NCBI GenBank assembly: GCA_002401775.2
Contig: NVUB02000027.1
Coordinates: 11,249 to 75,248 of the forward strand
DNA length: 64,000 nucleotides
Direction: 5' to 3'
From: Ectothiorhodospiraceae bacterium
Lineage (GTDB): Bacteria; Pseudomonadota; Gammaproteobacteria; SZUA-152
Positions 16,219-60,052 of the stretch are shown here, piece after piece (positions within the stretch are counted from its first letter, which is position 1; every line of letters starts with the position of its first letter). The notes under the pieces were generated by a model. That model had not been told where the DNA came from. It worked only from the letters and a program-made list of their open reading frames with translations, and ran no database searches. A program made the translations under genes and the position numbers.

Positions 16219-16533
16219 ATGATAATATCTAACCTTGAATTGATTCCCGGAAAACGCGTCACCAAACATTTAGGGCTTGTGCAGGGCAGCACGGTTCGTT
16301 CAAAGCATGTGGGGCGAGATTTTATGGCGGGCCTGAAGAATATCTTTGGCGGTGAGCTCAAAGGGTATACTGAGCTATTGCAAGATGCCCGCGAAGAAGC
16401 CGTATCCAGAATGACGGAACAGGCAAGTTCCATCGGCGCCAATGCGATACTCAATGTTCGCTTCTCCACGTCCTCAATTACGTCAGGCGCCGCCGAACTG
16501 TTCGCCTACGGTAGCGCGGTCATCATGGAGTAA
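16219..16533 (+). CDS. YbjQ family (UPF0145) protein
   Basis: 104 aa, LGLVQGSTVRSKHVGRDFMAGLKNIFGGELKGYTELL...ANAILNVRF, the typical YbjQ pattern. Confidence 0.85.
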   Translation: MIISNLELIPGKRVTKHLGLVQGSTVRSKHVGRDFMAGLKNIFGGELKGYTELLQDAREEAVSRMTEQASSIGANAILNVRFSTSSITSGAAELFAYGSAVIME

Positions 16534-16538
16534 GTGTC

Positions 16539-17009
16539 ATGTTTGATTTCATTGTATTTTTAGTCTTACTCGCACTTGGATATGGCTTTGGCCAGTATTT
16601 TGAACGTCGCCATTACCAGTCAATTCGCGAACGCGAACAAGAATTGAAAGACATTCTCATTATTCAGACCAAAATTATTCCCCGAGATTACACCAACCAT
16701 CATGACACATTTATTGTTAACGGTAGTGTTGTCATCTCTGTCGATTATTTTAAGCGATTCGTCGCGGGACTGAAAAATCTCGTTGGCGGCCGCATCACAC
16801 CTTATGAAACCTTACTCGACAGAGCGCGTCGAGAAGCGATACTGCGCATGAAAGAAGAAGCTCATGCTTCCGGCGCCAAAGTCATACTCAACGTAAAGTA
16901 TGAAATCTGCTCTATATACAAGGGACGTCGTAATCAAATTGGTTCCGTAGAAGCACTTGCCTATGGCACCGCCTTCCAGGCGACCAAGCAAACACTTGGG
17001 GGAAGCTAA
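16539..17009 (+). CDS. membrane-anchored YbjQ-domain protein
   Basis: N-terminal TM helix (FDFIVFLVLLALGYGFG) followed by a YbjQ-like core (FVAGLKNLVGGRITPYETLLDRARREAILRMKEEA). It starts 5 nt after the previous gene. Confidence 0.75.
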   Translation: MFDFIVFLVLLALGYGFGQYFERRHYQSIREREQELKDILIIQTKIIPRDYTNHHDTFIVNGSVVISVDYFKRFVAGLKNLVGGRITPYETLLDRARREAILRMKEEAHASGAKVILNVKYEICSIYKGRRNQIGSVEALAYGTAFQATKQTLGGS

Positions 17010-18716: not shown

Positions 18717-18811
18717 AATTTCGACCGCGATGAGCTATTGTCTCATTGAGGCGCTAACAAAGAGCGGCGTTCATACAAATGATGTTTATTATAAAAAGAA
18801 ACTGATTTTCT

Positions 18812-19135
18812 CTAGGTCAGAGATAAGCGAGCCTCTAAAAAATATGCGGTACGCTGAATAAATCGCCAAATTCGGTTCACATCAGCGCCAAACGCAAAAG
18901 ATCCTTTACTGGTAATCACCTGACACCACAGCGATACATCCCGTATCAGCACTAGCGGCATCCCCCATAAACACTCCACATTACTAGCAGTAAGCACCAG
19001 GGATAATCCCGCTAATACAAAAATATTACTTCCAATAATGCGAAACTTAAAGTTACCATAGAGCGTCCTTAACGTTGAGCTGAATGCAACCGACACATAA
19101 AACGGCCTTGACACCGCCTGATAATGATTCATCAA
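18812..19135 (-). CDS. hypothetical protein (weak call)
   Basis: 107-aa ORF with hydrophobic stretches, and the only sizeable ORF in a 500-bp gap. No family resemblance was recognised. Confidence 0.25.
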   Translation of the reverse strand: MMNHYQAVSRPFYVSVAFSSTLRTLYGNFKFRIIGSNIFVLAGLSLVLTASNVECLWGMPLVLIRDVSLWCQVITSKGSFAFGADVNRIWRFIQRTAYFLEARLSLT

Positions 19136-19234
19136 AAAAATAATTCAGCTAACAACTACATATTATTATCTGTCATTTTTTCCGTATGGTTATGTATACG
19201 CACATAGGGTGACATAAGACCAGGGAAGAGAAAA

Positions 19235-22200
19235 ATGCAAGCCTCGAGACCGTACTTATCACTACTCAACTATGTGTTTTTATTCTCACTGGCTTTCATT
19301 TTAACCGGGTGCGGCGCAGGATCTGATAGTAACACTGGCAATGGCGGCAACAATCCCTCCATCGAAATACCATCGCCAAATGAACCGCGAGTTTCCAATA
19401 GCGCAATATTCGCTGATGCCGGGAAAATCATTGCCGTTCGCGTAACGGAAAGTGTCACCCTGGATGGCAGCGCATCCAGCACTTCATTATCAGCGCCGTT
19501 AATTTTTGACTGGTCTTTCCTTGCCATACCCGAAACCAGCTTGGTTGAGTTGTCCAATGAGACCACCGCCAACCCAGTCTTTATTCCTGATGTCGCCGGC
19601 ACTTACACGGTACAACTCATCGTCAGTGCCGGCGGTCTGGTCAGTCAACGCGCCATTGCTTTCATCGAAGTCACCGTTAACGGACATTCCACAGGTACAC
19701 GGGTACACACCAGTTTTCCTGCCCGATGCGCTGATTGCCACGATGGCCGGTTTGCCCAAGGTGATGGGCCCATTGATCCTATTCCCCCGAAATCAGGCGA
19801 TCATATCGCTACCAGCAATGCCTGTGAGGCCTGTCATACCACGTTTGGGTTTGAGCAGATTCAATTTGTCGATCATCTTGCGGTATTTGGTGTTTGCAGC
19901 AGTTGTCACGATGGCGAAACCGCCATTGGTAAATCTGAATTCCATATAGAGACATCGGCCGAATGTGACGACTGCCACACCACCTCCGGATTTCTAACCT
20001 TAAATATCGATGGCAACTTTGATCACACCGGTATTACACGCGGCTGTGATACCTGTCATAACGGCATCACCGCTATTGGTAAAAACGAAGGCCACTTTGT
20101 CACCGATGCGGAATGTAGTGCCTGCCATAACACCAGCAACTTCAAAGACGCCTTTGTCGACCACAGCACCATCACGGAAAATTGCGCAAGCTGCCACGAT
20201 GGTACAACCGCAACCGGCCAAACCATCGGCCACCCTGAAATGTCCGTCGATTGTGGCATTTGCCACAGCACCAGCATCTTTAGTCTCGACGGCGTATTCA
20301 ATCACCGAGTGGTTGATGCCAGCGTACAGCCCTGTGAAGACTGCCATACCGACAGCAACAGCATTAGCGCCCGTGGCAAGGCGGCAGCGGTCAACCATCC
20401 CCCAACAACTGCCGACTGCGGCGTATGCCATGGCGTCGGCGGCGGGAATTTTGCAGACGGTATTTTCGACCACACCGGCATCGTCAATAATTGCAACAAA
20501 TGCCACGGTGATGCCGGAAATGGTTCAGGGCTGGGTAAATCCATCACTCACATACCGACGAGTGCCGATTGCAGTGTTTGCCACACCGTTGGCACCTTCA
20601 CGACCGGGTTCTTTACTCATAACTCGGAAATCGTCGACCCCGTTAGCTGCACAAGCTGCCATGACGGCACCTTCACCCTCGGTCTGACAGAAAACCACTT
20701 ACCCACCACAGAAGATTGTCGCCTCTGCCACCTCAACACAGACACCTTCACCGATGCGACGTTTGACCACGCTGGGGTAGATACCCGTAATTGCTCCGTA
20801 TGCCACAACGGCGATATCAGCACCGGCAAGAACACCAACCATCTGCCGACAATCCGCGACTGTTCCGACTGCCACAACAGCAGTCAATTCACCGATTTCA
20901 AAGGCGCGAGCTTTGACCATCAAGACACAGACACTATTTGTGCGTCGTGCCATGACGGCATCATTGCTATCGACAAAACCGCAGACCACATCCCGGCACA
21001 AAAAGAATGCAGCCAATGCCATACCGACACCACCACCGGCGGCTTTGCCATGTCCATCTTTATGGACGACGTTCACCCTGGGCTTTCCAGTGGTTGTGAA
21101 GGCTGCCACACCCTTCGCTTCTTTGCCGATACACCGACGGCTCTCAAGTCAACCAACCACATACCCACGAGCCAGGACTGCCGTGTGTGTCATACCAATA
21201 CTGCCTTCAGCCCCAATATATTTGATCACACCGGCATTACCGGTAATTGCACCTCCTGCCATGACGGTAATTTTGTTGACCCCGCTGGCGCGCTCGGCAT
21301 AACGCCTGATCACCTCGTCACAACAGAAGATTGCGGACTGTGCCACGGCATCGGAGCCAACTTCACTGATGGCGTGTTTGACCATACGGGCATCGTTGAT
21401 AGCTGCTCTGATTGTCATGGCGACAACGGTACAGGCGCCATCACCAAGAAAAATGCCGGTCATGTCCCCACTACACAGGATTGCAGCGTCTGCCACGTCG
21501 TTGGTACTTTTGCCACGGCGGTATTTGACCATGTTGGCATTGTCGATAATTGCACTGCCTGTCACGACGGCTCTATCGCCATTGCTACGGTCAAAAACAT
21601 CAGCCACATCCCCACCACAGAAGACTGTTCGGTATGCCATAACACCACCGTTTTTGCCGGAGCAAAGTTTGATCACACCGGCATTTTGAACAACTGCGCC
21701 ACTTGCCACGACGGGAATACCACCATCGGCAAAGACGGCTCACATGTCCCCACCAACGACGATTGCAACGTGTGCCATCAAACCACCGGCTTTATCCCCG
21801 CCACATTTGATCACACCGGCATCGTCGACAACTGCCAATCCTGTCACGATGGCACACTCGCGCAAGGCAAAGGCAACAACCATGTGCAAACCACCGCAGA
21901 CTGTGGTCTCTGCCATACTCCCACAGGCTTCGTACCCGCTACCTTTGACCACAGCGCCATCTCCAACAATACACGCTGTGATTCTTGCCACGGCGTAACC
22001 GCCACCGGTACGGATGCAAAAACCAACCCACCTCACATTCCCACCAGCTTGGATTGTCGCTCCTGCCACACCACCGCAACCTTCGCAGGCGGCACCTGGA
22101 CACACGATTCCAGCAGTACAGGCCGCTGTGATAGCTGCCATAACAATACCGGTGGCGGCGCAACGCCCAAGCCCACTCGCGGCCACATTTCAACAAACCT

Positions 22201-22507
22201 GCAATGTGACGATTGCCATACCACCAACGCCTGGGCACCCACTAGCTTCAACCATGACCCCAGCGGAAATTACCCAGGCGACCACAGAAAGAAACTGGCC
22301 TGCGGCGCATGCCACGGTAATGTCGTCACCACGCCGTTTGCTTACCCCTTTAGCCAGTACGCCCCCTTCTGCGCAGCGTGCCACAAAAATGATTTTGAAC
22401 GGGAAGGCGACCACATCGGCGGGAAAAATGGCTCCGTGGCACAAAACAAAGATTGCAGCGGCGGAGGCAGAGGCTGCCATCGAGTCAGTGATAGAAATTT
22501 TGATTAA
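19235..22507 (+). CDS. multiheme c-type cytochrome lipoprotein (36 CxxCH motifs) with N-terminal PKD/Ig-like domain
   Basis: Lipobox FILTG-C at aa 22-26. A PKD-like segment lies at about aa 60-147 (VTLDGSASS...FDWSF...AGTYTVQLIV). I counted 36 CxxCH motifs by hand from aa 165 to about 1050, arranged in alternating di-heme units. Confidence 0.9.
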   Translation: MQASRPYLSLLNYVFLFSLAFILTGCGAGSDSNTGNGGNNPSIEIPSPNEPRVSNSAIFADAGKIIAVRVTESVTLDGSASSTSLSAPLIFDWSFLAIPETSLVELSNETTANPVFIPDVAGTYTVQLIVSAGGLVSQRAIAFIEVTVNGHSTGTRVHTSFPARCADCHDGRFAQGDGPIDPIPPKSGDHIATSNACEACHTTFGFEQIQFVDHLAVFGVCSSCHDGETAIGKSEFHIETSAECDDCHTTSGFLTLNIDGNFDHTGITRGCDTCHNGITAIGKNEGHFVTDAECSACHNTSNFKDAFVDHSTITENCASCHDGTTATGQTIGHPEMSVDCGICHSTSIFSLDGVFNHRVVDASVQPCEDCHTDSNSISARGKAAAVNHPPTTADCGVCHGVGGGNFADGIFDHTGIVNNCNKCHGDAGNGSGLGKSITHIPTSADCSVCHTVGTFTTGFFTHNSEIVDPVSCTSCHDGTFTLGLTENHLPTTEDCRLCHLNTDTFTDATFDHAGVDTRNCSVCHNGDISTGKNTNHLPTIRDCSDCHNSSQFTDFKGASFDHQDTDTICASCHDGIIAIDKTADHIPAQKECSQCHTDTTTGGFAMSIFMDDVHPGLSSGCEGCHTLRFFADTPTALKSTNHIPTSQDCRVCHTNTAFSPNIFDHTGITGNCTSCHDGNFVDPAGALGITPDHLVTTEDCGLCHGIGANFTDGVFDHTGIVDSCSDCHGDNGTGAITKKNAGHVPTTQDCSVCHVVGTFATAVFDHVGIVDNCTACHDGSIAIATVKNISHIPTTEDCSVCHNTTVFAGAKFDHTGILNNCATCHDGNTTIGKDGSHVPTNDDCNVCHQTTGFIPATFDHTGIVDNCQSCHDGTLAQGKGNNHVQTTADCGLCHTPTGFVPATFDHSAISNNTRCDSCHGVTATGTDAKTNPPHIPTSLDCRSCHTTATFAGGTWTHDSSSTGRCDSCHNNTGGGATPKPTRGHISTNLQCDDCHTTNAWAPTSFNHDPSGNYPGDHRKKLACGACHGNVVTTPFAYPFSQYAPFCAACHKNDFEREGDHIGGKNGSVAQNKDCSGGGRGCHRVSDRNFD

Positions 22508-22623
22508 TACTACGGGTTCATTAGTAAATACAGAGATCCAAACCTCTCCCTAAATGGGAGAGGGAGCATTCTTTGACTTTTTGGTACAATACGACACCTT
22601 CACCGACTTAAGTTGTCATTGCC

Positions 22624-30477: not shown

Positions 30478-31593
30478 TTATGGCAGAGTGTCGTAGGGGG
30501 TGACCGTTGGTTTATCCGCCGTAAGCAATCGGATCAGCTTCAGGTGTACAAAAAGCCTTTCTTTTCCCGCAGTAATTTCACGCAGTACGCCAATTTCAGT
30601 TAGCTGCTTTAGGTAGGCCGCCGCCGTTTGGCGTTTAGCAATGCCAGCTTCCACCAAATTGGCAATACGGCAATATGGTTGCTCAAAAATAAGCTGTGTC
30701 AGCTCATGGCTATAAATTTTTGGTAGGCGGTCGCGTATATGACTACTTGTAGTGGCAATCAATTCCCGAATAGCGGCAATCTTGGCAGTGGTCCACTGCG
30801 CAGTTTCGGCGACGGCCTGCAACATAAACAGCAGCCAGGGTTGCCAGTCATCATCGCGTGTCACTCCAGTTAACAATCGATAGTAATCAATTTTATGTTG
30901 CACGATGTAACGACTGAGATAGAGCACAGGTAAAGTCAGCAGGTCTTTTTCTATGAGGTAGAGAATATTAAGTACACGCCCAGTTCGGCCATTCCCATCT
31001 AGAAACGGATGGATAGCTTCAAACTGATAATGCGCCACCGCCATTACCACCAGCGGGTCAAGACTGGATTGTTCATCGTGAATAAACTTCTCCCAATTAC
31101 CCAGCAAATCACGTAATCGTCCCTCGCCATCCGGGGGGGTGTAGATAGTCTCGCCCGTTGCAGCATTAGCGATAGTCGTACCCGGTACTTTCCGAATATC
31201 CATATCCCGTCCCTTAATAGTGGAACAAATTGTGGTTGCAGTGGCCGTACACAATGGGCGCCGTCCCAGCGCCAGGTAGCCTTGATACAAGGCTGTACGA
31301 TATCGTAGAGCCTCTTTGGTGGGCATGTCCGCCTGAGCTTCCGCCTGAGCATATTGAAACAACCTGTCGGTGGTAGTGACAATATTCTCAATCTCAGAAC
31401 TGTCTTTTGCCTCAAGCATTGGCAGGCTATTGATCAGAATCGTTTGATTAGGCAAAAGCTCGGCAGCCTGCCGCAGTTCGGCCAGAGCAGCTCGTGCAGG
31501 AATACAGGCCTTAAGCACTTCACGAGACTCAAGATCAGAACGCGGAGGAATTTGCGGCAACTCGTTATAGGGAGCCCGAGGGTCAAAAGTCAT
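30478..31593 (-). CDS. Fic family protein (class II-type, with C-terminal wHTH)
   Basis: Fic motif HPFLDGNGRTGR. An N-terminal inhibitory-helix motif SSEIEN ([ST]xxxE[GN]) is present. The C-terminal part resembles a winged helix (RQTAAAYLKQLTEIGVLRE). Confidence 0.9.
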   Translation of the reverse strand: MTFDPRAPYNELPQIPPRSDLESREVLKACIPARAALAELRQAAELLPNQTILINSLPMLEAKDSSEIENIVTTTDRLFQYAQAEAQADMPTKEALRYRTALYQGYLALGRRPLCTATATTICSTIKGRDMDIRKVPGTTIANAATGETIYTPPDGEGRLRDLLGNWEKFIHDEQSSLDPLVVMAVAHYQFEAIHPFLDGNGRTGRVLNILYLIEKDLLTLPVLYLSRYIVQHKIDYYRLLTGVTRDDDWQPWLLFMLQAVAETAQWTTAKIAAIRELIATTSSHIRDRLPKIYSHELTQLIFEQPYCRIANLVEAGIAKRQTAAAYLKQLTEIGVLREITAGKERLFVHLKLIRLLTADKPTVTPYDTLP

Positions 31594-47643: not shown

Positions 47644-49527
47644 TTATTTTTCCTGCGCCTGTTCTGCCAGTAAATTTACTTGCGACGGATAGTCAAAGGC
47701 CGCTTGCTTCAATTGCACATGCCCCGCTACCAGTGCCTTTTTGGTGCGCGCCATTAACATTTTGTCGCCCGTACGGCTAGCAATCTCCAGGGAGATGCGC
47801 AGCAAGGTAGTGGAGGGTGAGGGCAATGGGCTTTCGTCCAGCACGGGCACACCAAAACCGCTGGGTAGCAGGGTTTGGTCTGACAAACGCCAGCCTGTGT
47901 CGTCATGAAAACGTCGCCAGCCATCCTTTACCCATCGAGCGGCTAACTGTAAATCACTGTTATTATCCGTCAAGACTGACCACGCCAGCAATCCTTCAGC
48001 CGCAAAGGCATAATCCTCGAGCCCTGCCTGCCCCAGCTCACCTTTTTTGCTTCTGGCTTTGGCTCTCAACAAGCGCGAGCCATCCCACAGGGAGTTTACG
48101 ATATAGTCTCGTACACCGTGCGCGGCCCGTTTATATTTCTCGCCACCCGACAACTGCGCACCTTGCACCAGTGCCGTTAACGCCAAACCATTCCAAGCTG
48201 CCAGCCGTTTATCGTCCACGGGTAAGTTACGCCGCCCACGTACTTTTAATAATTTTTCTCGCGCCGATTGATAACGTTTTTGCGCAAGCGATGCCTCTAT
48301 TTTCAATGCGTCCGCCGCCTCACCCAAGGTCATCTGCAAACGCGCAAGATAACCGGCATCAAACAAACTCTGCCCCTCCAGCCCCCAGAGTATTTTCATC
48401 AAGGCATATTCTTCACGCGACAAAATGCCTAACAATGTTTCGGTTTCCCATAAATAATAGCCGCCCTCAACACCGGCAGCATCCACTGCAGAAAAACTGG
48501 CCACCATTGCGCCCGGCGTATTCTGCCCAACCAACGGCCTACGCATTTTCACCAACATAAAATCCAGTGTTTCACGGCCGATGTTTTCGTAATCGACACG
48601 ATTAAAAACCTTGGCTGCCCGCAAATACAAGCCCGATAAGAGTGCATTGTCATACAGCATTTTTTCAAAATGGGGTGTTTGCCAACCAGGGTCCGTGGTG
48701 TAGCGATAAAAACCACCGCCTAAATGGTCGCGCATCCCTTGGCTCGCCATACGATCCAGCGTCAACGTCAAAAAGGCCTTTAATTGGGGAATGGGTTTAC
48801 GCTGATATGCACTGAGCAAACTATCCAGCTGCGGCACCATAGGAAACTTGGTTTGCTCACCGAAACCACCTTCCATTTCATCGCCTAATTGCATCGCCTG
48901 TTGCAAAAAAATCGTTTCATAGCGCCGGGCATCATCAGGCTTGAGCGCCGGGTCTGGCAACGCGGGCTGCCCTTTCATTGCGGCGGCCGCCCTCGCAGCC
49001 GCTTGAGTCAGGTAAGCTGGCGCGGTTTCCCACTGTTGCTGCAACTCCATCAGCAGCGTTAAAAAACGATCTTTCGGTAAATAAGTCAGGCCGACCAGTG
49101 GATTACCATCGGGCGTCAGAAAAACATTCAAAGGCCAACCGGCGGCACCCCGGGTGCGCATGACAAAATCGATAAGATACGCATCCAGCGCTGGGTTCAG
49201 CTCACGGTCCACCTTCACCGAAATAAAGCCCTTATTAAGGATTTTAGCCACCTGCGGGTCGCGGTAGCTCTCGCGTTGCATTACATGGCACCAATGGCAG
49301 GCAAAATAACCAATGGACACAAACAGCAGCTTGTTCTGTTTTTTGGCCTGCTCGAGGACCTCCGCCGACCAATCGTGCCACTCAACCGGGTCATCGCCAT
49401 GCATGGCCAAATAGGGAGAATCATGCCCCGTCAGACGGTTTTCGGCGGCCAGCGGCAGAGTAAGTACCCACAAACACAAGGCAACTCCCATTAAAAAAGG
49501 CACTTTCACAGACATTTTGACGTACAT
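47644..49527 (-). CDS. DUF255 thioredoxin-domain protein (YyaL-like) with signal peptide
   Basis: SPYLAMHGDDPVEWHDW...LFVSIGYFACHWCHVMQRESY motif followed by an alpha/alpha-toroid-like region. Confidence 0.9.
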   Translation of the reverse strand: MYVKMSVKVPFLMGVALCLWVLTLPLAAENRLTGHDSPYLAMHGDDPVEWHDWSAEVLEQAKKQNKLLFVSIGYFACHWCHVMQRESYRDPQVAKILNKGFISVKVDRELNPALDAYLIDFVMRTRGAAGWPLNVFLTPDGNPLVGLTYLPKDRFLTLLMELQQQWETAPAYLTQAAARAAAAMKGQPALPDPALKPDDARRYETIFLQQAMQLGDEMEGGFGEQTKFPMVPQLDSLLSAYQRKPIPQLKAFLTLTLDRMASQGMRDHLGGGFYRYTTDPGWQTPHFEKMLYDNALLSGLYLRAAKVFNRVDYENIGRETLDFMLVKMRRPLVGQNTPGAMVASFSAVDAAGVEGGYYLWETETLLGILSREEYALMKILWGLEGQSLFDAGYLARLQMTLGEAADALKIEASLAQKRYQSAREKLLKVRGRRNLPVDDKRLAAWNGLALTALVQGAQLSGGEKYKRAAHGVRDYIVNSLWDGSRLLRAKARSKKGELGQAGLEDYAFAAEGLLAWSVLTDNNSDLQLAARWVKDGWRRFHDDTGWRLSDQTLLPSGFGVPVLDESPLPSPSTTLLRISLEIASRTGDKMLMARTKKALVAGHVQLKQAAFDYPSQVNLLAEQAQEK

Positions 49528-51858: not shown

Positions 51859-52360
51859 TACAAACGCTTAACACCCAACACAAAAAAACCCACCGTAGGG
51901 TGGACACGCTTCACAGTGCCCACGCGATTAAACCACCAAACTCACGCTGAATTCACGCTGAACTCGCCCCAAACTATTTCAGTAAACTTAACACACAAAA
52001 CAAAACCATCATTCACTCTTCCAACGAAAAACTATCCCTATACTCCACCAAAAAATAATCAGGCGTAGTGACCATCAGAGTCACCATCAGCTTCGCTTTA
52101 TTCATATCGACACGCGCAACCATTATCTCAATTGGCCCGTGAAAAAATAAACCGCCCGCAGACATCCTCTCATTCACATGCTCACCCAAACCAATTTGAA
52201 TCACCTGACCTGGCTGCCTGTCTGTCTACAAATACCCTTTTAACCCCCATCAACTCACTCCTTGTTGAAATCACACCTCAACCAACACTACGTAAAACAT
52301 AGTTCACAGCCAAGCCGAATCCTACGAAAATCGTAGTTTATCAAACAGTCGGACATTCGC

Positions 52361-52663
52361 ATGGCAATAGACTCACCCATAAAGATACGTCTCAAAGAAG
52401 CAAGACTGCGTGCAGGTTTAACCCAGGAAAAACTCGGTATTCTAGCGGGAATTGATGAAAACAATGCCAGCGCCAAGATGAATCAATACGAGAAAGGGAC
52501 CCACATTCCCAAATACCCTCGACTAAAAGACCTTGCTGACGCACTTGGCGTACCAAGCGCCTATTTTTATGCCGAAACGGACGAATTAGCCGAATTGATA
52601 TACTGTTATGGAAAGCTCAATAGTAAAGCTAAACAAAAACTTCTAAAGAACGCACAACCCTAA
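52361..52663 (+). CDS. XRE-family HTH transcriptional regulator
   Basis: IRLKEARLRAGLTQEKLGILAGIDENNASAKMNQYEKG HTH, 100 aa. Confidence 0.75.
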   Translation: MAIDSPIKIRLKEARLRAGLTQEKLGILAGIDENNASAKMNQYEKGTHIPKYPRLKDLADALGVPSAYFYAETDELAELIYCYGKLNSKAKQKLLKNAQP

Positions 52664-52945
52664 CCTAAAATATCATATACCCGTTCTGGAAAAAAGGTGC
52701 GTATTACTCAAAATAAGCATATGTATATACTGAACCCATGAACATTTAGATGTAGCTGCCACTTTTAATTATTTTTTCAGGCTGCTCACAAGCATCTGTA
52801 CAAGCGAGAATTAAAGAAAATTCCTATTGTCAGGTTATTAATAAAAGCATCAACCATCCGTCACTACAGCAGTATTTTCATATCGACATTTTACCGGAAA
52901 TATCCCCTCTTTTTATAACAGTAGACAACTTTACTGGAAGTGTGC

Positions 52946-53260
52946 TCAATTAACAAAGTTTGGAAAACAGGTAAAAATTATAAACAACTCCAACTCTCCA
53001 AAATGTATATTTTTTAAGATCTCAATAACTAATACTACACCAACCACTTTTGACTCGACATTCTTATACAAGCCCGAAGGCATTAATGGAGTAGCGAAGC
53101 TTAAAAAGGAAAAATCCAAATGGTATGCCAGCGAATCAAGAATAGTTGAAATGTGAGACAGGTATACTTTTTCAACAAAACTTATTTCACTTGTATGGGA
53201 TTGATAAATCCCCCAAAATTTACGTCCTGGTTTGATTTCGCCTTTAGGGATGGCAGGCAC
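52946..53260 (-). CDS. hypothetical protein (weak call)
   Basis: 104-aa ORF in AT-rich DNA. No family was recognised. Confidence 0.3.
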   Translation of the reverse strand: MPAIPKGEIKPGRKFWGIYQSHTSEISFVEKVYLSHISTILDSLAYHLDFSFLSFATPLMPSGLYKNVESKVVGVVLVIEILKNIHFGELELFIIFTCFPNFVN

Positions 53261-53313
53261 TATTCTAAGGCAATCATCTGGTTTTGGCCCTCCACGTAAT
53301 AAGGGTCTACTCT

Positions 53314-53664
53314 ATGAGAATCAACGATTTTATAATTTCCCTTTCAGTCCCGTTATTATGTATTTCACTAACAGCCTGCCAGATTGATGAACAAAAACCC
53401 TCATACACCACCATAAACAACACACTGAGTGATGGCGGCGAAACCATTACCTGGAAAGAAGGCCAAGGCTTGCTTAATATTAATAATATTCAACACAAAC
53501 TCAACGAAGAAGATAAGCTATTATTCTCAAAATCACTTGAATGGTTTGCCACAGAATCACATTTTAGTTTTGAAAAGCTGTCGGGGAAAACCGAAAAGCA
53601 AACTGTTGATATTATAAACTGCATAAAATTATCTAAGCCAAATATGCAGAAATCATGCTTTTAA
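53314..53664 (+). CDS. putative lipoprotein
   Basis: MRINDFIISLSVPLLCISLTAC with lipobox LTAC. 116 aa from ATG 53314. Confidence 0.55.
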   Translation: MRINDFIISLSVPLLCISLTACQIDEQKPSYTTINNTLSDGGETITWKEGQGLLNINNIQHKLNEEDKLLFSKSLEWFATESHFSFEKLSGKTEKQTVDIINCIKLSKPNMQKSCF

Positions 53665-53778
53665 AGAGTGCAGCCAACTTAGCATTAAAAACATAAACAA
53701 CCCTAAGTCGTGACAATATCACAAAAATTTATATAACTATCCAGACTCGTTCGATTGATATTAAACGGTTATATCGCT

Positions 53779-54999
53779 TCATCCCAGCAGCTTTAATGCA
53801 CGGCGAAACGGTTGAGTTAGTTTTTTGGGGTGGGTTTTAGTCAATGATACCGAGTCACAATTTTGAAAATAACAGAATTGTTTGATAGCTTCTACAAATG
53901 CAGTAGTAACTAACTCTTGATCAAAGCTGTGTTGTTCAAAATGCAAATATTTTATCTCTAATTGGTTGGTTTTTCGATGGGCTTTACAGTCCATCCGCCC
54001 AATAAATTCATCGCCGTAAAGTAACGGTAGGCAAAAGTAACCATACTCACGTTTGGCGGCAGGCACATAACACTCTAATTGGTAACCGTATTGAAACAGT
54101 GCCTTGAGGCGTTCGCGCTGAATGACGCTGTTGTCGAAGGGTGAAAGAATCAATATGCGTTTTTTTAACCGAGGAAGAGGGCGTTCGAGAGCATCCGATT
54201 CCACTAAAAATACTTCACCACTGCTCATTTGCACTTGTTCTAAAGTGCGCTGCGCCAACTTTTCGCTTATTAAGGCTTTCACCGCTTTACGTAGTTCAAC
54301 ATTTCGGCGCTGGTAAGTCAGCCCTTTGAGAGAAGCAATCCCGTGACAGCGCAACTGTTGATCTACAATGTGCGCCGCAAACGCTTCCATGCTGGGCATT
54401 CGTGAATTTACCGAGTCAGGCAATACCCGCTCCGTTAGATCATATGTTTTTTGGAAACCTTCGCGGTCGCTGACCATTATGTCACCTTGCATATACAGCT
54501 GTTCGAGAGCCTTTTTGGCGGGTTTCCAGTCCCACCAGCCTGCACGTTTTGTACTGTTAGATTCGACATCGCGGGATCGTAACGGGCCATCTGAACGTAT
54601 ACGGGCCAATAATTCACTCATGAGTTTCATATCACGGTCTTTATACCAATGAGTTTGCCCGCTTTTAATAGCATGTTTGTAGGGTAGGGAGAAACGAAAA
54701 TCTGCGATAGGCAGAAAAGCTGCCGCATGTGTCCAATACTCGAAAATATCTCCATCGAGTAACATTTGATTTGTCATGGCTGGTTTGAAATTAGGTACTC
54801 TTGAGTAAAAAACATGATGGTGTGCTCGCTCCACCACCGATAAGGTATCGATCTGAACATAACCTATGTGGTTAATAGCGTTACGGGCCCCTACCAAACC
54901 GCACCCATAAGGTTTCGCCTGAAGCAAACCTTGCGCAGCCAGAGCAAGGCGGCGTAATCGTACTCGTTCTTGTGGTCGTTTAATTTCAATCATGGTCAT
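53779..54999 (-). CDS. YcaQ/AlkZ-like winged-helix DNA glycosylase family protein
   Basis: IGYVQIDTLSVVERAHHHVFYSRVPNF...FEYWTHAAAFLP resembles the remembered YcaQ (DUF1006) signature. 406 aa. Confidence 0.85.
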   Translation of the reverse strand: MTMIEIKRPQERVRLRRLALAAQGLLQAKPYGCGLVGARNAINHIGYVQIDTLSVVERAHHHVFYSRVPNFKPAMTNQMLLDGDIFEYWTHAAAFLPIADFRFSLPYKHAIKSGQTHWYKDRDMKLMSELLARIRSDGPLRSRDVESNSTKRAGWWDWKPAKKALEQLYMQGDIMVSDREGFQKTYDLTERVLPDSVNSRMPSMEAFAAHIVDQQLRCHGIASLKGLTYQRRNVELRKAVKALISEKLAQRTLEQVQMSSGEVFLVESDALERPLPRLKKRILILSPFDNSVIQRERLKALFQYGYQLECYVPAAKREYGYFCLPLLYGDEFIGRMDCKAHRKTNQLEIKYLHFEQHSFDQELVTTAFVEAIKQFCYFQNCDSVSLTKTHPKKLTQPFRRALKLLG

Positions 55000-55813
55000 A
55001 CTTGCCTAACATTGAGTTCAGCAGACTGGAATTTACGTGGTTTTTGCTGCGTTACAGAGAATCACCACCAAAACACTGTAATATTCGAGCCTGCGTATAA
55101 CATTTTTTATTTTACGAAATATAACTGTTTTTACATCCAGCTACAAATAAAATAAAAATAGCGGCGATGAACATCTACATGCTTGTAATATCAAGCATGT
55201 AGATCGCTCACGGGTTGTGAGGCCAGATATTCGAGACAATGAGCGTGTTTAATGAGTATTTCAACGGATTTTTACCCATACTTCTGAGAAACCTCGAAAA
55301 AACAACACGATAGCCTAAAGTGGAACCCACCTATTCTCAATCTCCTAATAAAATACTAGGAGTTCCCACGCGAACTTGCCGGGTATTCGTCATATGTGTT
55401 GACAATCCAGCCTATACAGATACACCCAGGCACAAGCAACGTGCTCCTACCAAGCCGACTTTAAGACAATAACTTATAGAATCCGGATTCAGCTTCAGTC
55501 ACTTTTATGAGTAAGAGTGACCGCAACCCTAAAATCACAGTTGCTCCACGGGGTATTGGCAGGAGCCTCAGACGGCTAATGAAAGCACTCAATAGGTTCT
55601 CGAGGGTATACCGACAGGAGCTGCCGGCGAGATCACCAAAAAAGATGATAGCGAGTAAAAAAATGGTACGAAGTTTTATTTCACCTCGGGAAAAAGTCGA
55701 GACTCATCATTGAACTGGGAAGTTTGAAATGAGCGTAGTGGGCGGTTATTCCAGTGGTGACTAAAGTGTGCATTGTTCAAGCTGGCAATGTGCACAACGA
55801 TTAAACAACGTTG

Positions 55814-55921
55814 TCACGGATTCGAAGAGCCCAGCACCATACAAGCAATCGGGACACCACTAACCTTACAAGCGACAAGACATGCCACGAGCGTACTAAT
55901 GATAAGCGCACAGAATGACAT
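55814..55921 (-). CDS. possible 35-aa hydrophobic peptide (below ORF-track cutoff)
   Basis: GGGAGGGATT-ATG then MSFCALIISTLVACLVACKVSGVPIACMVLGSSNP*. There is a strong SD at correct spacing, and the ORF is followed by short palindromes. It is supported by the SD and hydrophobicity only. Confidence 0.3.
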   Translation of the reverse strand: MSFCALIISTLVACLVACKVSGVPIACMVLGSSNP

Positions 55922-56142
55922 AATCCCTCCCACCCACAATCTCACCTCCATTCCCATTGGTAGTATCAATGTATTGATATCATAAACTGATGCTATATCA
56001 ATAGCTCAATCAACTCTAACAACCAATCAATCATCGAACATCCCAACATACTACACACACGAACATTACTTATAAAGGGCTCTGACCCCTTATATACACA
56101 CGTTCACACGCGGGTGCGTGGGAACGAGACATCAGCTTGCCT

Positions 56143-56760
56143 TCACTTTTTGTCTTCCATGTCTTCGGTTTTATAAAGGGTATAGCCTTCATAGTAATAG
56201 CTGGCATCAATACCTTTCATATAGATGGCACTGTCATGGATTTTTTCTGTTAAGGCTTGTTTGAGTAACACCTTAATTTCAACATCTTTAACGGGGCTGC
56301 GTTCCATTGCCAGCAGGTAGTTATCTTTATCGACACTACTCCAATCCACTACTCGGTGCAGTTGGTGTTTTAAGAGGAGATCCAGCCATATGCGTGTGCT
56401 TCGTCCATTGCCTTCTCGAAAGGGGTGGGCAATGTTCATTTCTACATACTTTTCGATAATTTCATCAAAGCTCGATTGCGGCATGGCTTCTATATGGTCT
56501 AGAGCAGCTTTTAGATACATTACGGGTGCAAATCTGAAATTTCCCTTTGCGATATTCACGCTGCGAAGTTTGCCTGCAAAGTCATAAATATCACTAAAAA
56601 GAAACTGGTGAATATCTGCCAATGCCTGAAAACTGCCTGCCTTGAGGCTATCAAAAAAACCGCTACTAAACAGCTGATGCGCTTTGGCTTTGCTGAGCTT
56701 TTCTTCAACTCTTGCCAGTTCAACCGCATCGGTGATGTTTAACTTATTCTCTAAGGTCAT
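56143..56760 (-). CDS. fic: Fic family protein (class III-type, about 200 aa)
   Basis: Fic motif HPFREGNGRSTR and a C-terminal inhibitory motif SYYYEG ([ST]xxxE[GN]). The size and layout resemble single-domain Fic proteins. Confidence 0.9.
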   Translation of the reverse strand: MTLENKLNITDAVELARVEEKLSKAKAHQLFSSGFFDSLKAGSFQALADIHQFLFSDIYDFAGKLRSVNIAKGNFRFAPVMYLKAALDHIEAMPQSSFDEIIEKYVEMNIAHPFREGNGRSTRIWLDLLLKHQLHRVVDWSSVDKDNYLLAMERSPVKDVEIKVLLKQALTEKIHDSAIYMKGIDASYYYEGYTLYKTEDMEDKK

Positions 56761-56896
56761 CCGTGCATTTCCTCTACGTTAGACAAACATCTTTGCAAGC
56801 AGGCTTGTTTGGTCTGTTTTCTCATGTCTCATTCCCACGCGGGAGTGTGGGAATGAGACATGGATCACCATTGTGCACAAAACAGCCAGCAACACT

Positions 56897-57061
56897 CTTC
56901 ATTTGAGTTTTTCCTTCAATTACACCGTACTGGGTGGTATGTGCAAATTTTGCACTAACGACGTCTTCCGTTAGTTCGACTTCGTTAAAAGTATTGCGGA
57001 TATGCGTTATGATGTCCGTTCTATCTCGCTGAAACAGTTCTGCTATTTGTTCCGTAGATAA
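56897..57061 (-). pseudogene. fragment resembling the N-terminus of a RhuM-type protein
   Basis: LSTEQIAELFQRDRTDIITHIRNTFNEVELTEDVVSAKFAHTTQ... is preceded by stop codons. The frame then runs into a REP hairpin. The resemblance to the WLxxxQIAxLFxxxxxxIxxHIxNIFxExEL pattern is from memory. Confidence 0.4.
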
Positions 57062-57099
57062 CTATTAAACCGGACACCCATATTTATAAATGTACTATA

Positions 57100-57162
57100 A
57101 TTTAACTACAAACCATCTGTGCCACTACAGTCGCGAAGGTCGATGCCTGGCCTTGTTAAGTG
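57100..57162 (-). other. attC site of cassette 5
   Basis: The minus strand reads CACTTAAC...GTTAAAT. The inverse core matches RYYYAAC and the core matches GTTRRRY. CACTTAAC is the exact complement of the first bases of cassette 5 (G|TTAAGTG). Confidence 0.7.
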
Positions 57163-57174
57163 TGGACGGCTTAT

Positions 57175-57594
57175 TCATTTTGCAGCTGATAGTTTTGAAT
57201 CAACACTACCTATAAAATCACTACACAACGTACACTCGCGCCCCGGACAATTGGATATTTGCAATCTATAGACGGAAGCATCTAGTTGTACAATTTGAAG
57301 TAAAAACTTCATTGGTGACCCTGCGACATAATGCTTGCTAATAAGATCCTTTGAGTCCTTAGTATCCAACCCTCCATACATCGAGTTTTTTTCAGCGAAG
57401 TCTCGCACTCTGTTGAAAAATGTTAAAGCCTCTGTTCCCGCCAACTTATAGTCCTTCTGGAATGAGTAGATAAAATCAGCAGGCTTTTCTCCATTTGGAC
57501 CTAGAAAATATTCTTTGTGGTTTTTTTCTTCACTACAACCAGCACACAGTAAGACTGTAAAAATTAAGAAATATATTAGCTTGCCATAATACAT
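57175..57594 (-). CDS. cassette 5 ORF: putative lipoprotein
   Basis: MYYGKLIYFLIFTVLLCAGC lipobox. AT-rich. Confidence 0.6.
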   Translation of the reverse strand: MYYGKLIYFLIFTVLLCAGCSEEKNHKEYFLGPNGEKPADFIYSFQKDYKLAGTEALTFFNRVRDFAEKNSMYGGLDTKDSKDLISKHYVAGSPMKFLLQIVQLDASVYRLQISNCPGRECTLCSDFIGSVDSKLSAAK

Positions 57595-57619
57595 CTTTCT
57601 AGATCCCACTGGTGTTGTC

Positions 57620-57677
57620 ACTTAACGTTCACTTCACTCGCGCGCTTTTCAGCGTCGAGTGGAAGTGTTGGTTATGC
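57620..57677 (-). other. attC site of cassette 4
   Basis: The minus strand reads GCATAAC caa CACTTC(C)ACTCG ...loop... CGAGTGAAGTG aac GTTAAGT. It is 58 bp long, and its stem has one extrahelical C. Confidence 0.65.
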
Positions 57678-57695
57678 GTAATTCCGCAAAATCTG

Positions 57696-58262
57696 TTAAA
57701 AGTTCCACCCTAATATAACTCCTATACCAGCATGAATATTCGACTTTGTATTATCATTTAAGAAATTAACAACATCATTGCTTTCATTTTGTACAATATT
57801 TTCTTTTGAGCTATTTTTTATCAAAAATGCAGGCCCCCCTAAAACTGACACATTAAATCCATTACTCCAAAACCACTGATATCCGAAACTAGATACTATA
57901 TCTATAAAGGTAACTCTTGCTTCAGAACCTAATTCAGTCTTAAATTTAGATTTTTCTACCCCTATTAATAGCTGCATTATGAAGCTATCTTTAAATACAC
58001 CACTTTTGGAATATCTCCAAGGAACAAAAAAACGGCTAAATGTGTTTTTCACATTATCATTAGAACTACCGAAAGATGGGCGATCCGATTTACATTCATT
58101 CCGTGCAAGTACACCTAACGTACTATTCTCTGATACAGCCATTTCGAAACCCATTTGATGGCATTTATATGGATCTGGGAGAATAATCAGATTAACGAAA
58201 TCTTTCGAATAACATATGTCTGAAAGAAAAAAAAGAAAGCTTATTAAGAACAACCTACTCAT
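57696..58262 (-). CDS. cassette 4 ORF: exported protein, probable small beta-barrel
   Basis: Signal peptide MSRLFLISFLFFLSDICYS. The C-terminus ...GVILGWNF ends in Phe. Confidence 0.6.
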   Translation of the reverse strand: MSRLFLISFLFFLSDICYSKDFVNLIILPDPYKCHQMGFEMAVSENSTLGVLARNECKSDRPSFGSSNDNVKNTFSRFFVPWRYSKSGVFKDSFIMQLLIGVEKSKFKTELGSEARVTFIDIVSSFGYQWFWSNGFNVSVLGGPAFLIKNSSKENIVQNESNDVVNFLNDNTKSNIHAGIGVILGWNF

Positions 58263-58347
58263 AAAACACTAACATAATGTAATATCATAAATCACCTCTC
58301 TGATTTTCTGCATTAAGTTCAACATACTATCCGTTACTATCATGACG

Positions 58348-58420
58348 CTCTAACGCTTTAATAACCTGGCGTTTTTTCTTGCGGCAGCTTTATGCCGTAA
58401 AAAAATGATCAGCGTTAATT
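58348..58420 (-). other. attC site of cassette 3
   Basis: The minus strand reads (TA)AATTAACGC...internal hairpin cggca taaagc tgccg...GCGTTAGAG. It overlaps the ORF stop codon. Core complementarity is weaker than in the other sites. Confidence 0.5.
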
Positions 58421-58788
58421 TACTTGTTAGCAAAATTTCTAGTTTGAAGTATATTTCTATTACAGTAATTCGCATTTTCAAATTCTATAATATTAGCACC
58501 TATATTAGGAACAGTAGGTAATATTGAAGTTAATTCTTGTACTATTTTCTTAGTTAAATTCGCTTTTTGCTCATTGCTTCTACCTTCCATTATATTTGAA
58601 AATACATGGATAAAATCTTCTATTTTATTTCCCGTTGAATATTTTTTAAACGAATTAACTCTTACTTTTATATCATTTTCATTAAACAGTTCAGTTGATT
58701 TAGCAGCAAAGTGAACTTGCTCAATTATTTGTTCTTCAGATTGCAATCTAAATATACTTTCAGAGCAATCTATTAAAAAATGAGGCAT
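58420..58788 (-). CDS. cassette 3 ORF: 5-carboxymethyl-2-hydroxymuconate isomerase-like (tautomerase superfamily)
   Basis: MPHFLIDCSESI N-terminus (catalytic Pro1 after Met) and about 120 aa, typical of the CHMI family. SD AGGAG. Confidence 0.7.
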   Translation of the reverse strand: MPHFLIDCSESIFRLQSEEQIIEQVHFAAKSTELFNENDIKVRVNSFKKYSTGNKIEDFIHVFSNIMEGRSNEQKANLTKKIVQELTSILPTVPNIGANIIEFENANYCNRNILQTRNFANK

Positions 58789-58814
58789 AGTTTCTCCTGT
58801 GCTTATTCTTCTAC

Positions 58815-58896
58815 TGCTAACGCCTAATTAAGTGGCCGCAGCGAAGCGGAGGTCTAAGCGCGCTTTTTGCGTGTGCATTAATATCTTGTTAGAGGC
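58815..58896 (-). other. attC site of cassette 2
   Basis: The minus strand reads GCCTCTAAC aagat ATTAA ... TTAAT taggc GTTAGCA, the canonical R''-spacer-L''/L'-spacer-R' layout. CCTCTAAC is the exact complement of the start of cassette 2 (G|TTAGAGG). Confidence 0.75.
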
Positions 58897-58899
58897 TTG

Positions 58900-59205
58900 T
58901 TAATCACAGCACGCCTCTGTTTTATTGCACAGATTACCATGTGCGACTTGTCTATATATTGTATATGGCAAGACAATTGTGTCAGCTATAAAGCTGAATG
59001 GCATATCTAATATTGTTAAGCCTTCATCTGTATATTTCTTTCCCATTAAAAAGCGATAGTCATTAGCTACGCCTGAATAAGCTCTTGGTATTTTAAAAGG
59101 TGGGTCACATTTAAAATTATCTTCATTCGCTGATAATGTAGCAACAGTAGAGCAGCCTTGAAGTAACAATTGCAATGCTAATATAAATATTATAATTCTT
59201 GTCAT
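58900..59205 (-). CDS. cassette 2 ORF: YceK/YidQ-like lipoprotein
   Basis: Lipobox LLQGC. YSGVANDY and LDMPFSFIADTIVLPYTIY resemble the YceK/YidQ (DUF1375) pattern. Confidence 0.65.
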   Translation of the reverse strand: MTRIIIFILALQLLLQGCSTVATLSANEDNFKCDPPFKIPRAYSGVANDYRFLMGKKYTDEGLTILDMPFSFIADTIVLPYTIYRQVAHGNLCNKTEACCD

Positions 59206-59222
59206 TGCTAGTTTTTATGCAC

Positions 59223-59268
59223 CTCTAACGTTTAAAAATACGTCCGTGTTAATTTTTTTGTTAGGTGC
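59223..59268 (-). other. attC site of cassette 1
   Basis: The minus strand reads GCACCTAAC aaaaaaattaacacggacgtatttttaaac GTTAG(A)GGTGC. The outer stem is 9 bp with one bulged A. The inverse core ACCTAAC matches RYYYAAC. Confidence 0.65.
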
Positions 59269-59357
59269 TCGGTGCATAATGCACTTCACTTTCTATCGGC
59301 ATTACCGGAGCTAGACCCCATAGGGCTGACATTTCTACACCATCAACGATTTTTCCA

Positions 59358-59723
59358 TCAATTTTCGATACTACGTATAATTGCATGGGTACCTTTAGTT
59401 ATATTTATAATTACTGGATATCCTGAGTTTATACATTTATATTTTATTTCGCTAATTTTATCACAAGCTGCTTCAAATTTACTTACATCATTTTTCTTAA
59501 AATAAAAATCAACAAATATGCTAGGCACATCTACTCTATGACGCTCGTTGATGTTGTGGGCTGATTCAGGAATAAAACTAGGAACCCATCCTTTGCCAAT
59601 TAACTCCGATTTTCTTACAGCCTCATAATTTATAAAATAATTTGATTTTTTTTCACTTTGTAACATCAACACAATTGTTGCAACTGCAAATATGGATACC
59701 ATTATGATTGCGACACTTTTCAT
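59358..59723 (-). CDS. cassette 1 ORF: membrane-anchored hypothetical protein
   Basis: N-terminal TM MKSVAIIMVSIFAVATIVLML. 121 aa. No family was assigned. Confidence 0.55.
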   Translation of the reverse strand: MKSVAIIMVSIFAVATIVLMLQSEKKSNYFINYEAVRKSELIGKGWVPSFIPESAHNINERHRVDVPSIFVDFYFKKNDVSKFEAACDKISEIKYKCINSGYPVIINITKGTHAIIRSIEN

Positions 59724-59734
59724 TTACTCTTGGC

Positions 59735-59741
59735 ATCTAAC
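59735..59741 (-). other. attI-type recombination junction (core GTTAGAT) preceding cassette 1
   Basis: The minus strand has GTTAGAT, which matches GTTRRRY, 11 nt upstream of the cassette-1 ATG. TTAGATGC pairs with GCACCTAA of attC1 with one mismatch. Confidence 0.45.
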
Positions 59742-60052
59742 AGTTGTATATAACGCACGCTCGTTTACCCATTTTCAACACATCCCGAGTATCGCCATAA
59801 GCTAATGAATTTACTAGATTTTCACAATATAACGCATTTAAACGGTGTTGCAAAATGAGCGTGCCTCATATCCCCCCATTTATGGTCGCAGTATACACCG
59901 ACCGAATTATCACAACCCATTGTTTTTGCTGTATTTGTTAAGACATCACAAGATAAAAATGCGCATCTTCAGGTTGCAAAACGAGAACATTTATTGGCTT
60001 CTCAAAAATACACTGTGGAAATGACCAGCAGTTAGCCGTCAAGGAGTCCATA

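Follow-up and report, generated by a model that had tools for sequence, protein, structure and literature searches.

A giant multiheme lipoprotein gene from the North Pond crustal aquifer that is related by sequence to the extracellular cytochromes of predicted PCC3 conduits

What does a protein with three dozen heme attachment motifs do when no partner for electron transfer is encoded beside it? The question is raised by a gene in a 64,000-nucleotide stretch of contig NVUB02000027.1 from an Ectothiorhodospiraceae bacterium, which is referred to here as the window. The initial annotation, made from this stretch by itself, described a stand-alone lipoprotein with tandem di-heme units and offered a surface electron wire, a periplasm-spanning conduit or an electron store as possible roles. 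Such roles still provide the best reading of the sequence. We consider it reasonably likely that the product is an outer-membrane-anchored, probably surface-exposed lipoprotein that serves as a heme wire or reservoir and corresponds to the distal element of a PCC3-type conduit.

The gene and the segments of its product are as follows.

19235-22507, plus strand: open reading frame (ORF), an open frame of 1,090 codons, translated from the sequence
19235..19312, plus strand: lipoprotein signal peptide, residues 1-26, with lipobox L-T-G-C26 (ILTG-C26); Cys26 does not vary among 94 homologs, and a Gly-rich linker comes after it
19313..19411, plus strand: low-complexity tether rich in Gly, Ser, Asn and Pro, residues 27-59, read from the sequence; predicted local distance difference test (pLDDT) scores are <50 for residues 25-54
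19412..19678, plus strand: PKD/Ig-like β-sandwich domain, residues 60-148, identified by Pfam PF22352, AF2 and Foldseek; core residues are invariant in 94 homologs
19706..22300, plus strand: 17 di-heme units, residues 158-1022, hemes 1-34; each has two CxxCH motifs and two conserved distal histidines
22301..22507, plus strand: C-terminal cap, residues 1023-1090, and TAA stop; the cap contains hemes 35 and 36 and, as a probable 37th site of heme attachment, C1074-x6-C1081-H1082

By a regular-expression count, the CxxCH motifs from residue 165 to residue 1046 number exactly 36, at spacings of 23-32 residues, with the C-x6-CH element behind them, which agrees with the original tally. Shuffled versions of the same protein carry 0.34 CxxCH motifs on average and three at most. 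The composition includes 75 Cys, 75 His and 4 Met, and the only cysteines outside CxxCH are lipobox Cys26 and the C1074/C1081 pair. Two motif flavors alternate strictly, as was first noticed: odd-numbered hemes follow the pattern CxxCH(D/N)G..GK..H(I/V)PT..D, and even-numbered hemes follow CxxCH.T..F..FDH.GI. This alternation yields 17 regular units of 46-58 residues each. The initial estimate of about 18 holds for all but the last pair, which is divergent and resides in the cap.

In an alignment of 94 homologs that averages 49% column identity, all 36 CxxCH motifs as well as C1074, C1081 and H1082 are invariant. There are 37 conserved histidines outside the motifs (35 present in at least 97% of the homologs and two in 76%), consistent with the proposal of one extra histidine per heme, and no methionine is conserved. 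The C-terminal motif appears as Cx6CH in 52 of the 94 proteins, as Cx4CH in 41 and as Cx5CH in one. Cx4CH is a known variant of heme c attachment. With 37 conserved histidines outside the motifs and a CxnCH at the C terminus that never varies, the protein is likely to have 37 hemes rather than 36. The protein probably binds 36 canonical hemes and one non-canonical (Cx6CH) heme, all of them His/His-ligated. Its mature apoprotein has a calculated mass of 111 kDa, or approximately 134 kDa with 37 hemes. The number of residues per heme is 29.5 for the protein as a whole and 24.8 for its heme region, and the most common residue shares are Thr 12.8%, Gly 10.4%, Ser 7.1% and Ala 7.1%.

The lipobox and the PKD/Ig-like module noted at the outset are both borne out. 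Residues 62-148 match K319L-like_PKD (PF22352) at 28.5 bits against a Pfam cutoff of 27, and this segment, with pLDDT values of 87-96, is the sole part of the protein that is modeled confidently by AF2. Foldseek relates it to the PKD domains of AAVR/KIAA0319 and the clostridial collagenases ColG/ColH, with template modeling (TM) scores up to 0.80. In the heme region, Pfam Cytochrome_C7 matches 16 stretches (3e-49) and an MtrC/MtrF domain II/IV model matches at 67 bits. The suggested likeness to paired CXXCH repeats is upheld by Paired_CXXCH_1 (PF09699), which scores 29.8 bits over two stretches against a gathering cutoff of 20.6. The NCBIfam c7-type triheme domain TIGR04257 also exceeds its cutoff (82.6 versus 40 bits, four stretches).

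Models for known decaheme proteins fit less well. The OmcA/MtrC model TIGR03507 reaches 82.6 bits of a required 209.3, and the periplasmic DmsE/MtrA model TIGR03508 reaches 120.6 of 192.2. NCBIfam models for octaheme and decaheme enzymes score far under their cutoffs. A sequence search of the PDB returns only weak matches, all to MtrC (E = 4e-5), and the hematite-binding motif is absent from the window protein. A sixth ligand is conserved for each heme, and neither CxxCK nor any similar site occurs, so that an open catalytic heme is not evident. Together with the low enzyme-model scores, this argues against a catalytic multiheme reductase, which is one form of an alternative that is weighed below with the neighboring genes.

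A concatenation of this length fused to a PKD domain had been thought unusual, but the protein belongs to a large family. A search of 5.8 billion protein clusters yields 953 relatives at E ≤ 1e-10. Nearly all of the best 120 are 1,050-1,140 residues long, with 50-70% identity to the window protein, and have a lipobox cysteine near position 26 followed by a Gly-rich linker. The sources of these 120 are uncultured Gammaproteobacteria, and the annotations read 'hypothetical' or 'cytochrome c3 family'. The number of CxxCH motifs is exactly 36 in 89 of the 120, and another 27 combine 35 with a Cx3-4CH variant. Because full-length ranking favors proteins of equal length, the C-terminal cap alone was used as a query against 1.84 billion representatives. 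The complete-looking cap-bearing lipoproteins from this search have 13-49 hemes, most often 30-36. This range rules out 'exactly 36 hemes' as a trait of the whole family, and the 36+1 arrangement is thus fixed only within the subfamily that shares at least 50% identity.

The heme array of the window protein has no tandem repeat at the DNA level. Paralogous units within it are on average 39% identical, compared with 53-56% for units at the same position in orthologs (proteins that are about 50% identical overall), and the positional ortholog is the best match for 9-13 of the 17 units. These observations rule out a recent tandem amplification, and the array is, as judged from such comparisons, ancient and fixed rather than recently concatenated. 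Some relatives are far larger. Proteins with 73, 76 and 90 CxxCH motifs and 2,072-2,496 residues are encoded in metagenomic loci (designated by L numbers) at L064 1753-8058, L078 63-6281 and L082 3015-10505. In their sequences these giants look like products of a head-to-tail duplication of the whole array that retain a single lipobox and PKD domain and the same C-terminal cap.

A genomic setting for such proteins has been described. He et al. 2017 predicted from genomes the PCC3 cluster, which comprises a porin, extracellular and periplasmic multiheme cytochromes and an inner-membrane protein (PMC5566968). The extracellular cytochrome has a median of 34 hemes, with examples of up to 63 and 85, and the periplasmic cytochrome has a median of 21 (PMC5566968). 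The inner-membrane protein has about 300 residues, five helices, an SGXXG motif and two WX3HX13H motifs, and was read as a di-heme cytochrome b (PMC5566968). These clusters occur in Alpha-, Beta- and Gammaproteobacteria, including bacteria of marine sediments and vents and the symbionts of tubeworms (PMC5566968); the extracellular cytochrome of the Riftia symbiont has 39 hemes at 26 residues per heme (PMC5566968 supplement). The carriers that He et al. list include the cultivable Amphritea atlantica, and electron uptake from Fe(II) is the direction that they favored (PMC5566968). Hoover et al. 2023 reported PCC3 from many Gallionellaceae (PMC10734462). The extracellular cytochromes there have 10-35 hemes, and either conduction over a long range or storage in the manner of a capacitor was proposed (PMC10734462).

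The same setting is found around relatives of the window gene. ORFs were called and neighbors were clustered for 80 metagenomic loci, three genomic loci and several long contigs. Directly upstream of the 36-heme gene, a module recurs in a set order. It starts with a Sel1/ankyrin protein, a membrane-anchored flavoprotein with 2×[4Fe-4S] and an inner-membrane protein (~270 residues); next come a 21-heme cytochrome that has a Sec signal, a 9-heme cytochrome and, last, a protein of ~700 residues. Two WX3HX13H motifs with SGXXG between them are present in each of the eight inner-membrane proteins compared. The heme-free ~700-residue protein ends in an aromatic residue in 13 of 16 copies, and its model (pLDDT 86) has a SPOR-like domain at the N terminus, helices resembling TPRs and a β-barrel with about 22-24 strands. 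This barrel resembles generic outer-membrane barrels and 24-strand ushers, and the model has no specific similarity to MtrB. The 9-heme cytochrome (~250-330 residues) is built from the same di-heme units and is 34-40% identical to several segments of the window protein; it may be the cytochrome that is inserted in the barrel. Its gene (L053 6649-7425 and equivalents) lies between those for the 21-heme cytochrome and the barrel. In some loci, the 9-heme gene and only a CcmG-like gene stand beside the 36-heme gene.

Linkage to this module is frequent without being universal. Among 36 related loci that retain 2.5 kb or more of upstream flank, 11 have the barrel gene upstream, 14 have the 9-heme gene and seven have the 21-heme gene; about half of the loci have none of the three. 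The barrel gene is directly adjacent in most linked loci; in L011 it is about 8 kb away on the opposite strand. The window protein is 49-55% identical, over essentially its full length, to the products of PCC3-linked genes in L013, L020, L044, L053 and L055. By this comparison, which covered linked metagenomic loci rather than the reference proteins of He et al. (for example, Slit_1448), the window gene is an ortholog of the PCC3 extracellular multiheme cytochrome gene. The description of the gene as stand-alone is thus accurate for the window, where no partner is nearby, and does not extend to orthologs that sit beside genes for the porin, the 21-heme and 9-heme cytochromes and the di-heme-b-type protein.

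The likeness to published PCC3 extracellular cytochromes extends to the very large number of hemes (a median of 34 and 39 in Riftia, compared with 36+1 here), the low number of residues per heme (26 as published and 25-29 here), a composition rich in Thr, Gly, Ser and Ala, internal repeats of about 46 residues, and a predicted outer-membrane or extracellular location. As in PCC3, orthologs are encoded right after the porin, together with a 21-heme cytochrome and an inner-membrane protein with two WX3HX13H motifs. There are also differences. The window gene is unlinked, and barrel, 21-heme and WX3HX13H genes are absent from the 64 kb and its 10-kb flanks. Compared with PCC3 as described, the marine gammaproteobacterial clusters add the 9-heme paralog, the Sel1/ankyrin protein and the membrane-anchored Fe-S flavoprotein. 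Heme number is essentially fixed at 36+1 in the window subfamily, whereas Gallionellaceae versions range from 10 to 35. The accessible parts of He et al. 2017 and Hoover et al. 2023 make no mention of the PKD domain, the lipobox or the CxnCH cap.

The existence of the PCC3 extracellular-cytochrome family was already known from genome analysis. The present analysis adds a probable 37th site of heme attachment, the conservation of both the PKD domain and the C-terminal cap, a heme number fixed within a subfamily and the duplicated arrays, along with the maturation genes beside orthologs, the unlinked clade, the North Pond origin and the failure of gene calling that are described below. Literature searches found nothing on the marine gammaproteobacterial subfamily beyond He et al., and nothing relevant under '36 heme' proteins. 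The Uet system of Tenderiales was considered as a counterpart and set aside as a different, undecaheme-based cluster.

Other multiheme proteins share some of these features. Like MtrC and OmcA of the Shewanella MtrCAB system, the window protein is a lipoprotein with a tether rich in Gly, Ser, Asp and Asn and with bis-His hemes, and would be the surface partner of a porin-cytochrome conduit. However, it has 36-37 hemes instead of 10, its sole non-heme domain is the PKD domain rather than the split β-barrel domains I/III, it lacks the hematite-binding motif, and the partner barrel in its relatives is not specifically similar to MtrB. The Geobacter 'nanowire' poly-c7 proteins (GSU1996, GSU0592 and GSU2210) are likewise long repetitive c7/c3-like chains with about 25 residues per heme. 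They differ in having a three-heme repeat period instead of two (46-58 residues), and they are soluble periplasmic proteins, unlike the PKD-bearing lipoprotein of the window. GSU1996 has one His-Met heme per domain; the window family has no conserved methionine and hence no such hemes.

If the window protein operates like its PCC3-linked orthologs, electrons would pass from the quinone pool or the cytoplasmic Fe-S flavoprotein to the di-heme-b inner-membrane protein, and from there to the 21-heme cytochrome, which would bridge the periplasm. The 9-heme cytochrome inside the ~22-24-strand barrel would then connect to the 36+1-heme surface cytochrome, acting as both wire and electron reservoir and extending for tens of nanometers. 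This outermost protein would exchange electrons with insoluble or distant redox partners, which in a basaltic aquifer are plausibly mineral Fe(II)/Fe(III) or Mn. The positions of the 9-heme, 21-heme and di-heme-b proteins are assigned by analogy with MtrCAB. MtrA and GSU1996 span roughly 0.8-1 nm per heme, and 37 hemes arranged in line at such a spacing could reach about 30 nm. A location outside the outer membrane is compatible with lipobox Cys26 and the PKD domain in the sequence.

The direction of flow could be inward or outward. A 2×[4Fe-4S] oxidoreductase with FAD and NAD(P) binding is encoded divergently from the PCC3 di-heme-b-like inner-membrane gene; copies of the Fe-S/FAD-NAD(P) enzyme are at L011 5112-6440, L013 2012-3337, L044 11008-12309 and L056 2520-4085, with another at L083 1-631. 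In sequence, the oxidoreductase and the di-heme-b-like protein resemble a split NOX/FRE-type transmembrane electron module. A NOX/FRE-like inner-membrane protein with a flavoprotein would equally suit electron export. Giant cytochromes of the PCC3 type rank with the largest heme wires predicted in biology, and they are widespread (more than 950 relatives and more than 2,300 inner-membrane proteins were found).

Several points weigh against a surface conduit of the PCC3 type. No gene for a porin, another multiheme cytochrome, an inner-membrane partner, ccm components or type II secretion exists in the 64 kb or in 10 kb past each end (~84 kb in total), which extends the statement of the initial annotation that porin, partner and ccm genes are missing from 64 kb. 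In a neighbor-joining tree, the window protein falls in a clade with those of L016, L083, L001, L018 and L015. All members of this clade that have sufficient flank lack linkage to the PCC3 core, and the linked genes are dispersed among several other clades. An entire clade without this linkage makes a porin-independent role possible. The face of the membrane on which a lipoprotein resides, surface or periplasmic, is not readable from sequence. The full-length AF2 model, computed from the 94-sequence alignment, is unreliable (mean pLDDT 57, predicted TM score 0.31), and we therefore only infer a linear heme geometry and its length; Foldseek searches with this model return PKD-domain matches only. 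The PCC3 system itself is known solely as a genome-based prediction. Its extracellular cytochrome was undetected in proteomes of Sideroxydans ES-1 (PMC12016527), and PCC3 transcripts were only moderately abundant in strain CL21 (PMC12442390).

The members of this unlinked clade are 56-64% identical. The neighbors in L083 and L016 are unrelated to electron transfer, except for a homolog of the Fe-S flavoprotein approximately 10 kb upstream in L083. In the lineage of the window, as gauged from these loci, the gene is separated from the PCC3 core, which is presumed to be encoded elsewhere in the genome. In searches for such a core in genomes with stand-alone genes, the porin query has only 126 matches and misses even the known-linked porins of L011 and L013, and for the inner-membrane query the comparison covered the best 120 of 2,316 matches.

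One alternative is that the protein is a porin-independent outer-membrane lipoprotein facing the periplasm, where it would be a periplasm-spanning conduit or a capacitor that buffers redox swings and has no extracellular role. The consistent lack of a linked porin in the window clade and the stand-alone position of about half of all loci are in line with this idea, and capacitor-like storage was raised for PCC3 cytochromes by Hoover et al. (PMC10734462). The lipobox is compatible with it as well. By the E. coli Lol rule, the residue at +2 sorts lipoproteins by membrane and not by face, and the glycine found here says only 'outer membrane'. However, in other lineages full-length orthologs with 50-55% identity directly follow the porin gene, PKD domains typically belong to proteins that are extracellular or on the surface, and the periplasmic role in PCC3 clusters is already taken by the 21-heme protein. 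A chain of 37 hemes would also exceed the width of the periplasm if it has the dimensions of MtrA or GSU1996. We regard this alternative as possible but rather unlikely.

In the lineage of the window, the gene has long been genomically uncoupled from porin-cytochrome modules and yet has kept every heme ligand. For this reason, a self-sufficient wire or capacitor at the envelope that needs no porin can be entertained, for example one that harvests or stores electrons from rock Fe(II) in cold, oxic basaltic crust. This is a doubtful proposition at present; if true, it would represent an electron-transfer architecture that is so far undescribed.

Genes that adjoin the orthologs provide further clues. 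A CcmI/CycH-type apocytochrome chaperone (TPR + Ig_CycH, E = 1.5e-30) is encoded directly downstream in 12 of 58 loci, and a secreted thioredoxin-fold protein with a WASWCGPC active site, similar to CcmG/DsbE, also adjoins orthologs. Their sequences suggest that these neighbors are dedicated maturation helpers for the giant apocytochrome. Examples of such helper genes are at L053 13301-14149, at L011 8433-9705 and in several other loci.

The same genes bear on whether the protein might be related to redox or peroxide stress, the other form of the alternative in which it is a catalytic multiheme reductase. The window gene does lie between a GST gene and the peroxide-stress gene yaaA, as first annotated, and genes called AhpC/TSA-Redoxin occur beside orthologs in nine of 36 loci. 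However, GST and yaaA are not conserved neighbors across related loci, and the 'AhpC/TSA' proteins are the secreted thioredoxin-fold proteins, whose WASWCGPC site is typical of CcmG/DsbE apocytochrome reductases and not of peroxiredoxins. A stress link through these genes is thereby rejected, and given the heme ligation described above, there is very little chance that either form of this alternative is correct.

The source contigs, TULL18-1_SAMN0757124x, trace through their BioSamples to the metagenomes of crustal fluid from North Pond by Tully et al. Across seven independent assemblies from several samples of this site, the gene, or the portion of it present on each contig, is 100% identical and has no frameshift or stop. 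A frameshift on resequencing had been named at the outset as an observation that would count against the protein, and none is seen. Ferrous iron bound in rock is thought to sustain some of the biomass in the North Pond aquifer (PMC5739024), and the copy from this site is a concrete candidate for electron exchange between microbes and basalt.

Public gene calls on four longer contigs (L100, L101, L102 and L105) omit the 1,090-codon plus-strand ORF and list in its place 5-7 short antisense ORFs of 45-186 residues. An exact-sequence look-up of the protein has no match because the public calls carry these antisense ORFs instead. This suggests that giant cytochromes are under-counted in gene catalogs.

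The following elements flank the gene.

18717..19234, plus strand: upstream intergenic region of 518 nucleotides, read from the sequence
19223-19230, plus strand: purine-rich Shine-Dalgarno-like element GGGAAGAG, four nucleotides ahead of the ATG, read from the sequence
22543..22583, plus strand: hairpin CCTCTCCC-TAAAT-GGGAGAGG followed by a T-rich tract, a weak terminator-like element ahead of yaaA, read from the sequence

A promoter scan of the upstream region gives one weak sigma-70-like match (19209-19236) that is no better than chance, and a consensus scan does not call the hairpin at 22543..22583. The 36-heme gene is predicted to be monocistronic and transcribed alone.

Such a gene could still be left over from a PCC3 system that was lost, orphaned and without a current function. 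No partner exists within ~84 kb, and even the public calls on long contigs are missing the gene. Several features speak against a remnant: 74 of 74 heme-binding cysteines, 37 of 37 proximal histidines and 37 of 37 distal histidine positions are present, the ORF is the same and uninterrupted in all seven assemblies, and it has its own Shine-Dalgarno-like site and downstream hairpin. The unlinked clade is old, to judge from its 56-64% identity, and still keeps all heme ligands. It is very unlikely that the gene is a remnant.

The wider neighborhood consists largely of housekeeping genes. Upstream are pilQ, aroK, aroB, genes for a dGTPase-like HD protein and a DamX-like SPOR protein, gltB, gltD, hemE, two YbjQ paralogs, an M48 peptidase and GST; downstream of the cytochrome gene are yaaA, a PhnA/YjdM protein, an ABC-F ATPase and others. 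Public contigs that carry the same genes add 10 kb of view at each end of the window. The left extension contains pilMNOP, a PBP1A, a VapC toxin and a heme-free RHS/YD-repeat protein, and the right extension contains DeaD, a methyltransferase, tatAB and his genes. A tblastn search of the window with the full set of PCC3 partners, plus the CcmI- and CcmG-like proteins, matches only the cytochrome gene itself, no further ORF in the window has more than one CxxCH, and tRNA and Rfam scans of the window return no matches.

The two adjacent YbjQ-family paralogs (putative heavy-metal-binding proteins) at 16219-17009 are followed by the M48 peptidase gene. This trio is also near the 36-heme gene in L083, on the opposite side of the gene, and therefore indicates a local rearrangement. 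The sole thiol-redox protein of the window is a DUF255/thioredoxin-like (DsbH-type) protein of 627 residues at 47644-49527 on the minus strand, which is not adjacent to the cytochrome gene. The heme-free RHS/YD-repeat protein has more than 1,100 residues and is encoded at L096 1-1958 on the minus strand, about 8 kb to the left of the window start, where it adjoins a VapC/HTH pair upstream of the pilMNOPQ cluster. Three Fic-domain proteins are encoded in the 64 kb, at 30478-31593 and 56143-56760 on the minus strand and at 60509-62059 on the plus strand. The last two are in or beside a stretch of low GC content (0.34-0.40) at 52000-60000, which also has an AlkZ-like glycosylase, small genes of HTH/Gp49 type and several ORFs that lack a Pfam match, and which is probably a mobile or defense island.

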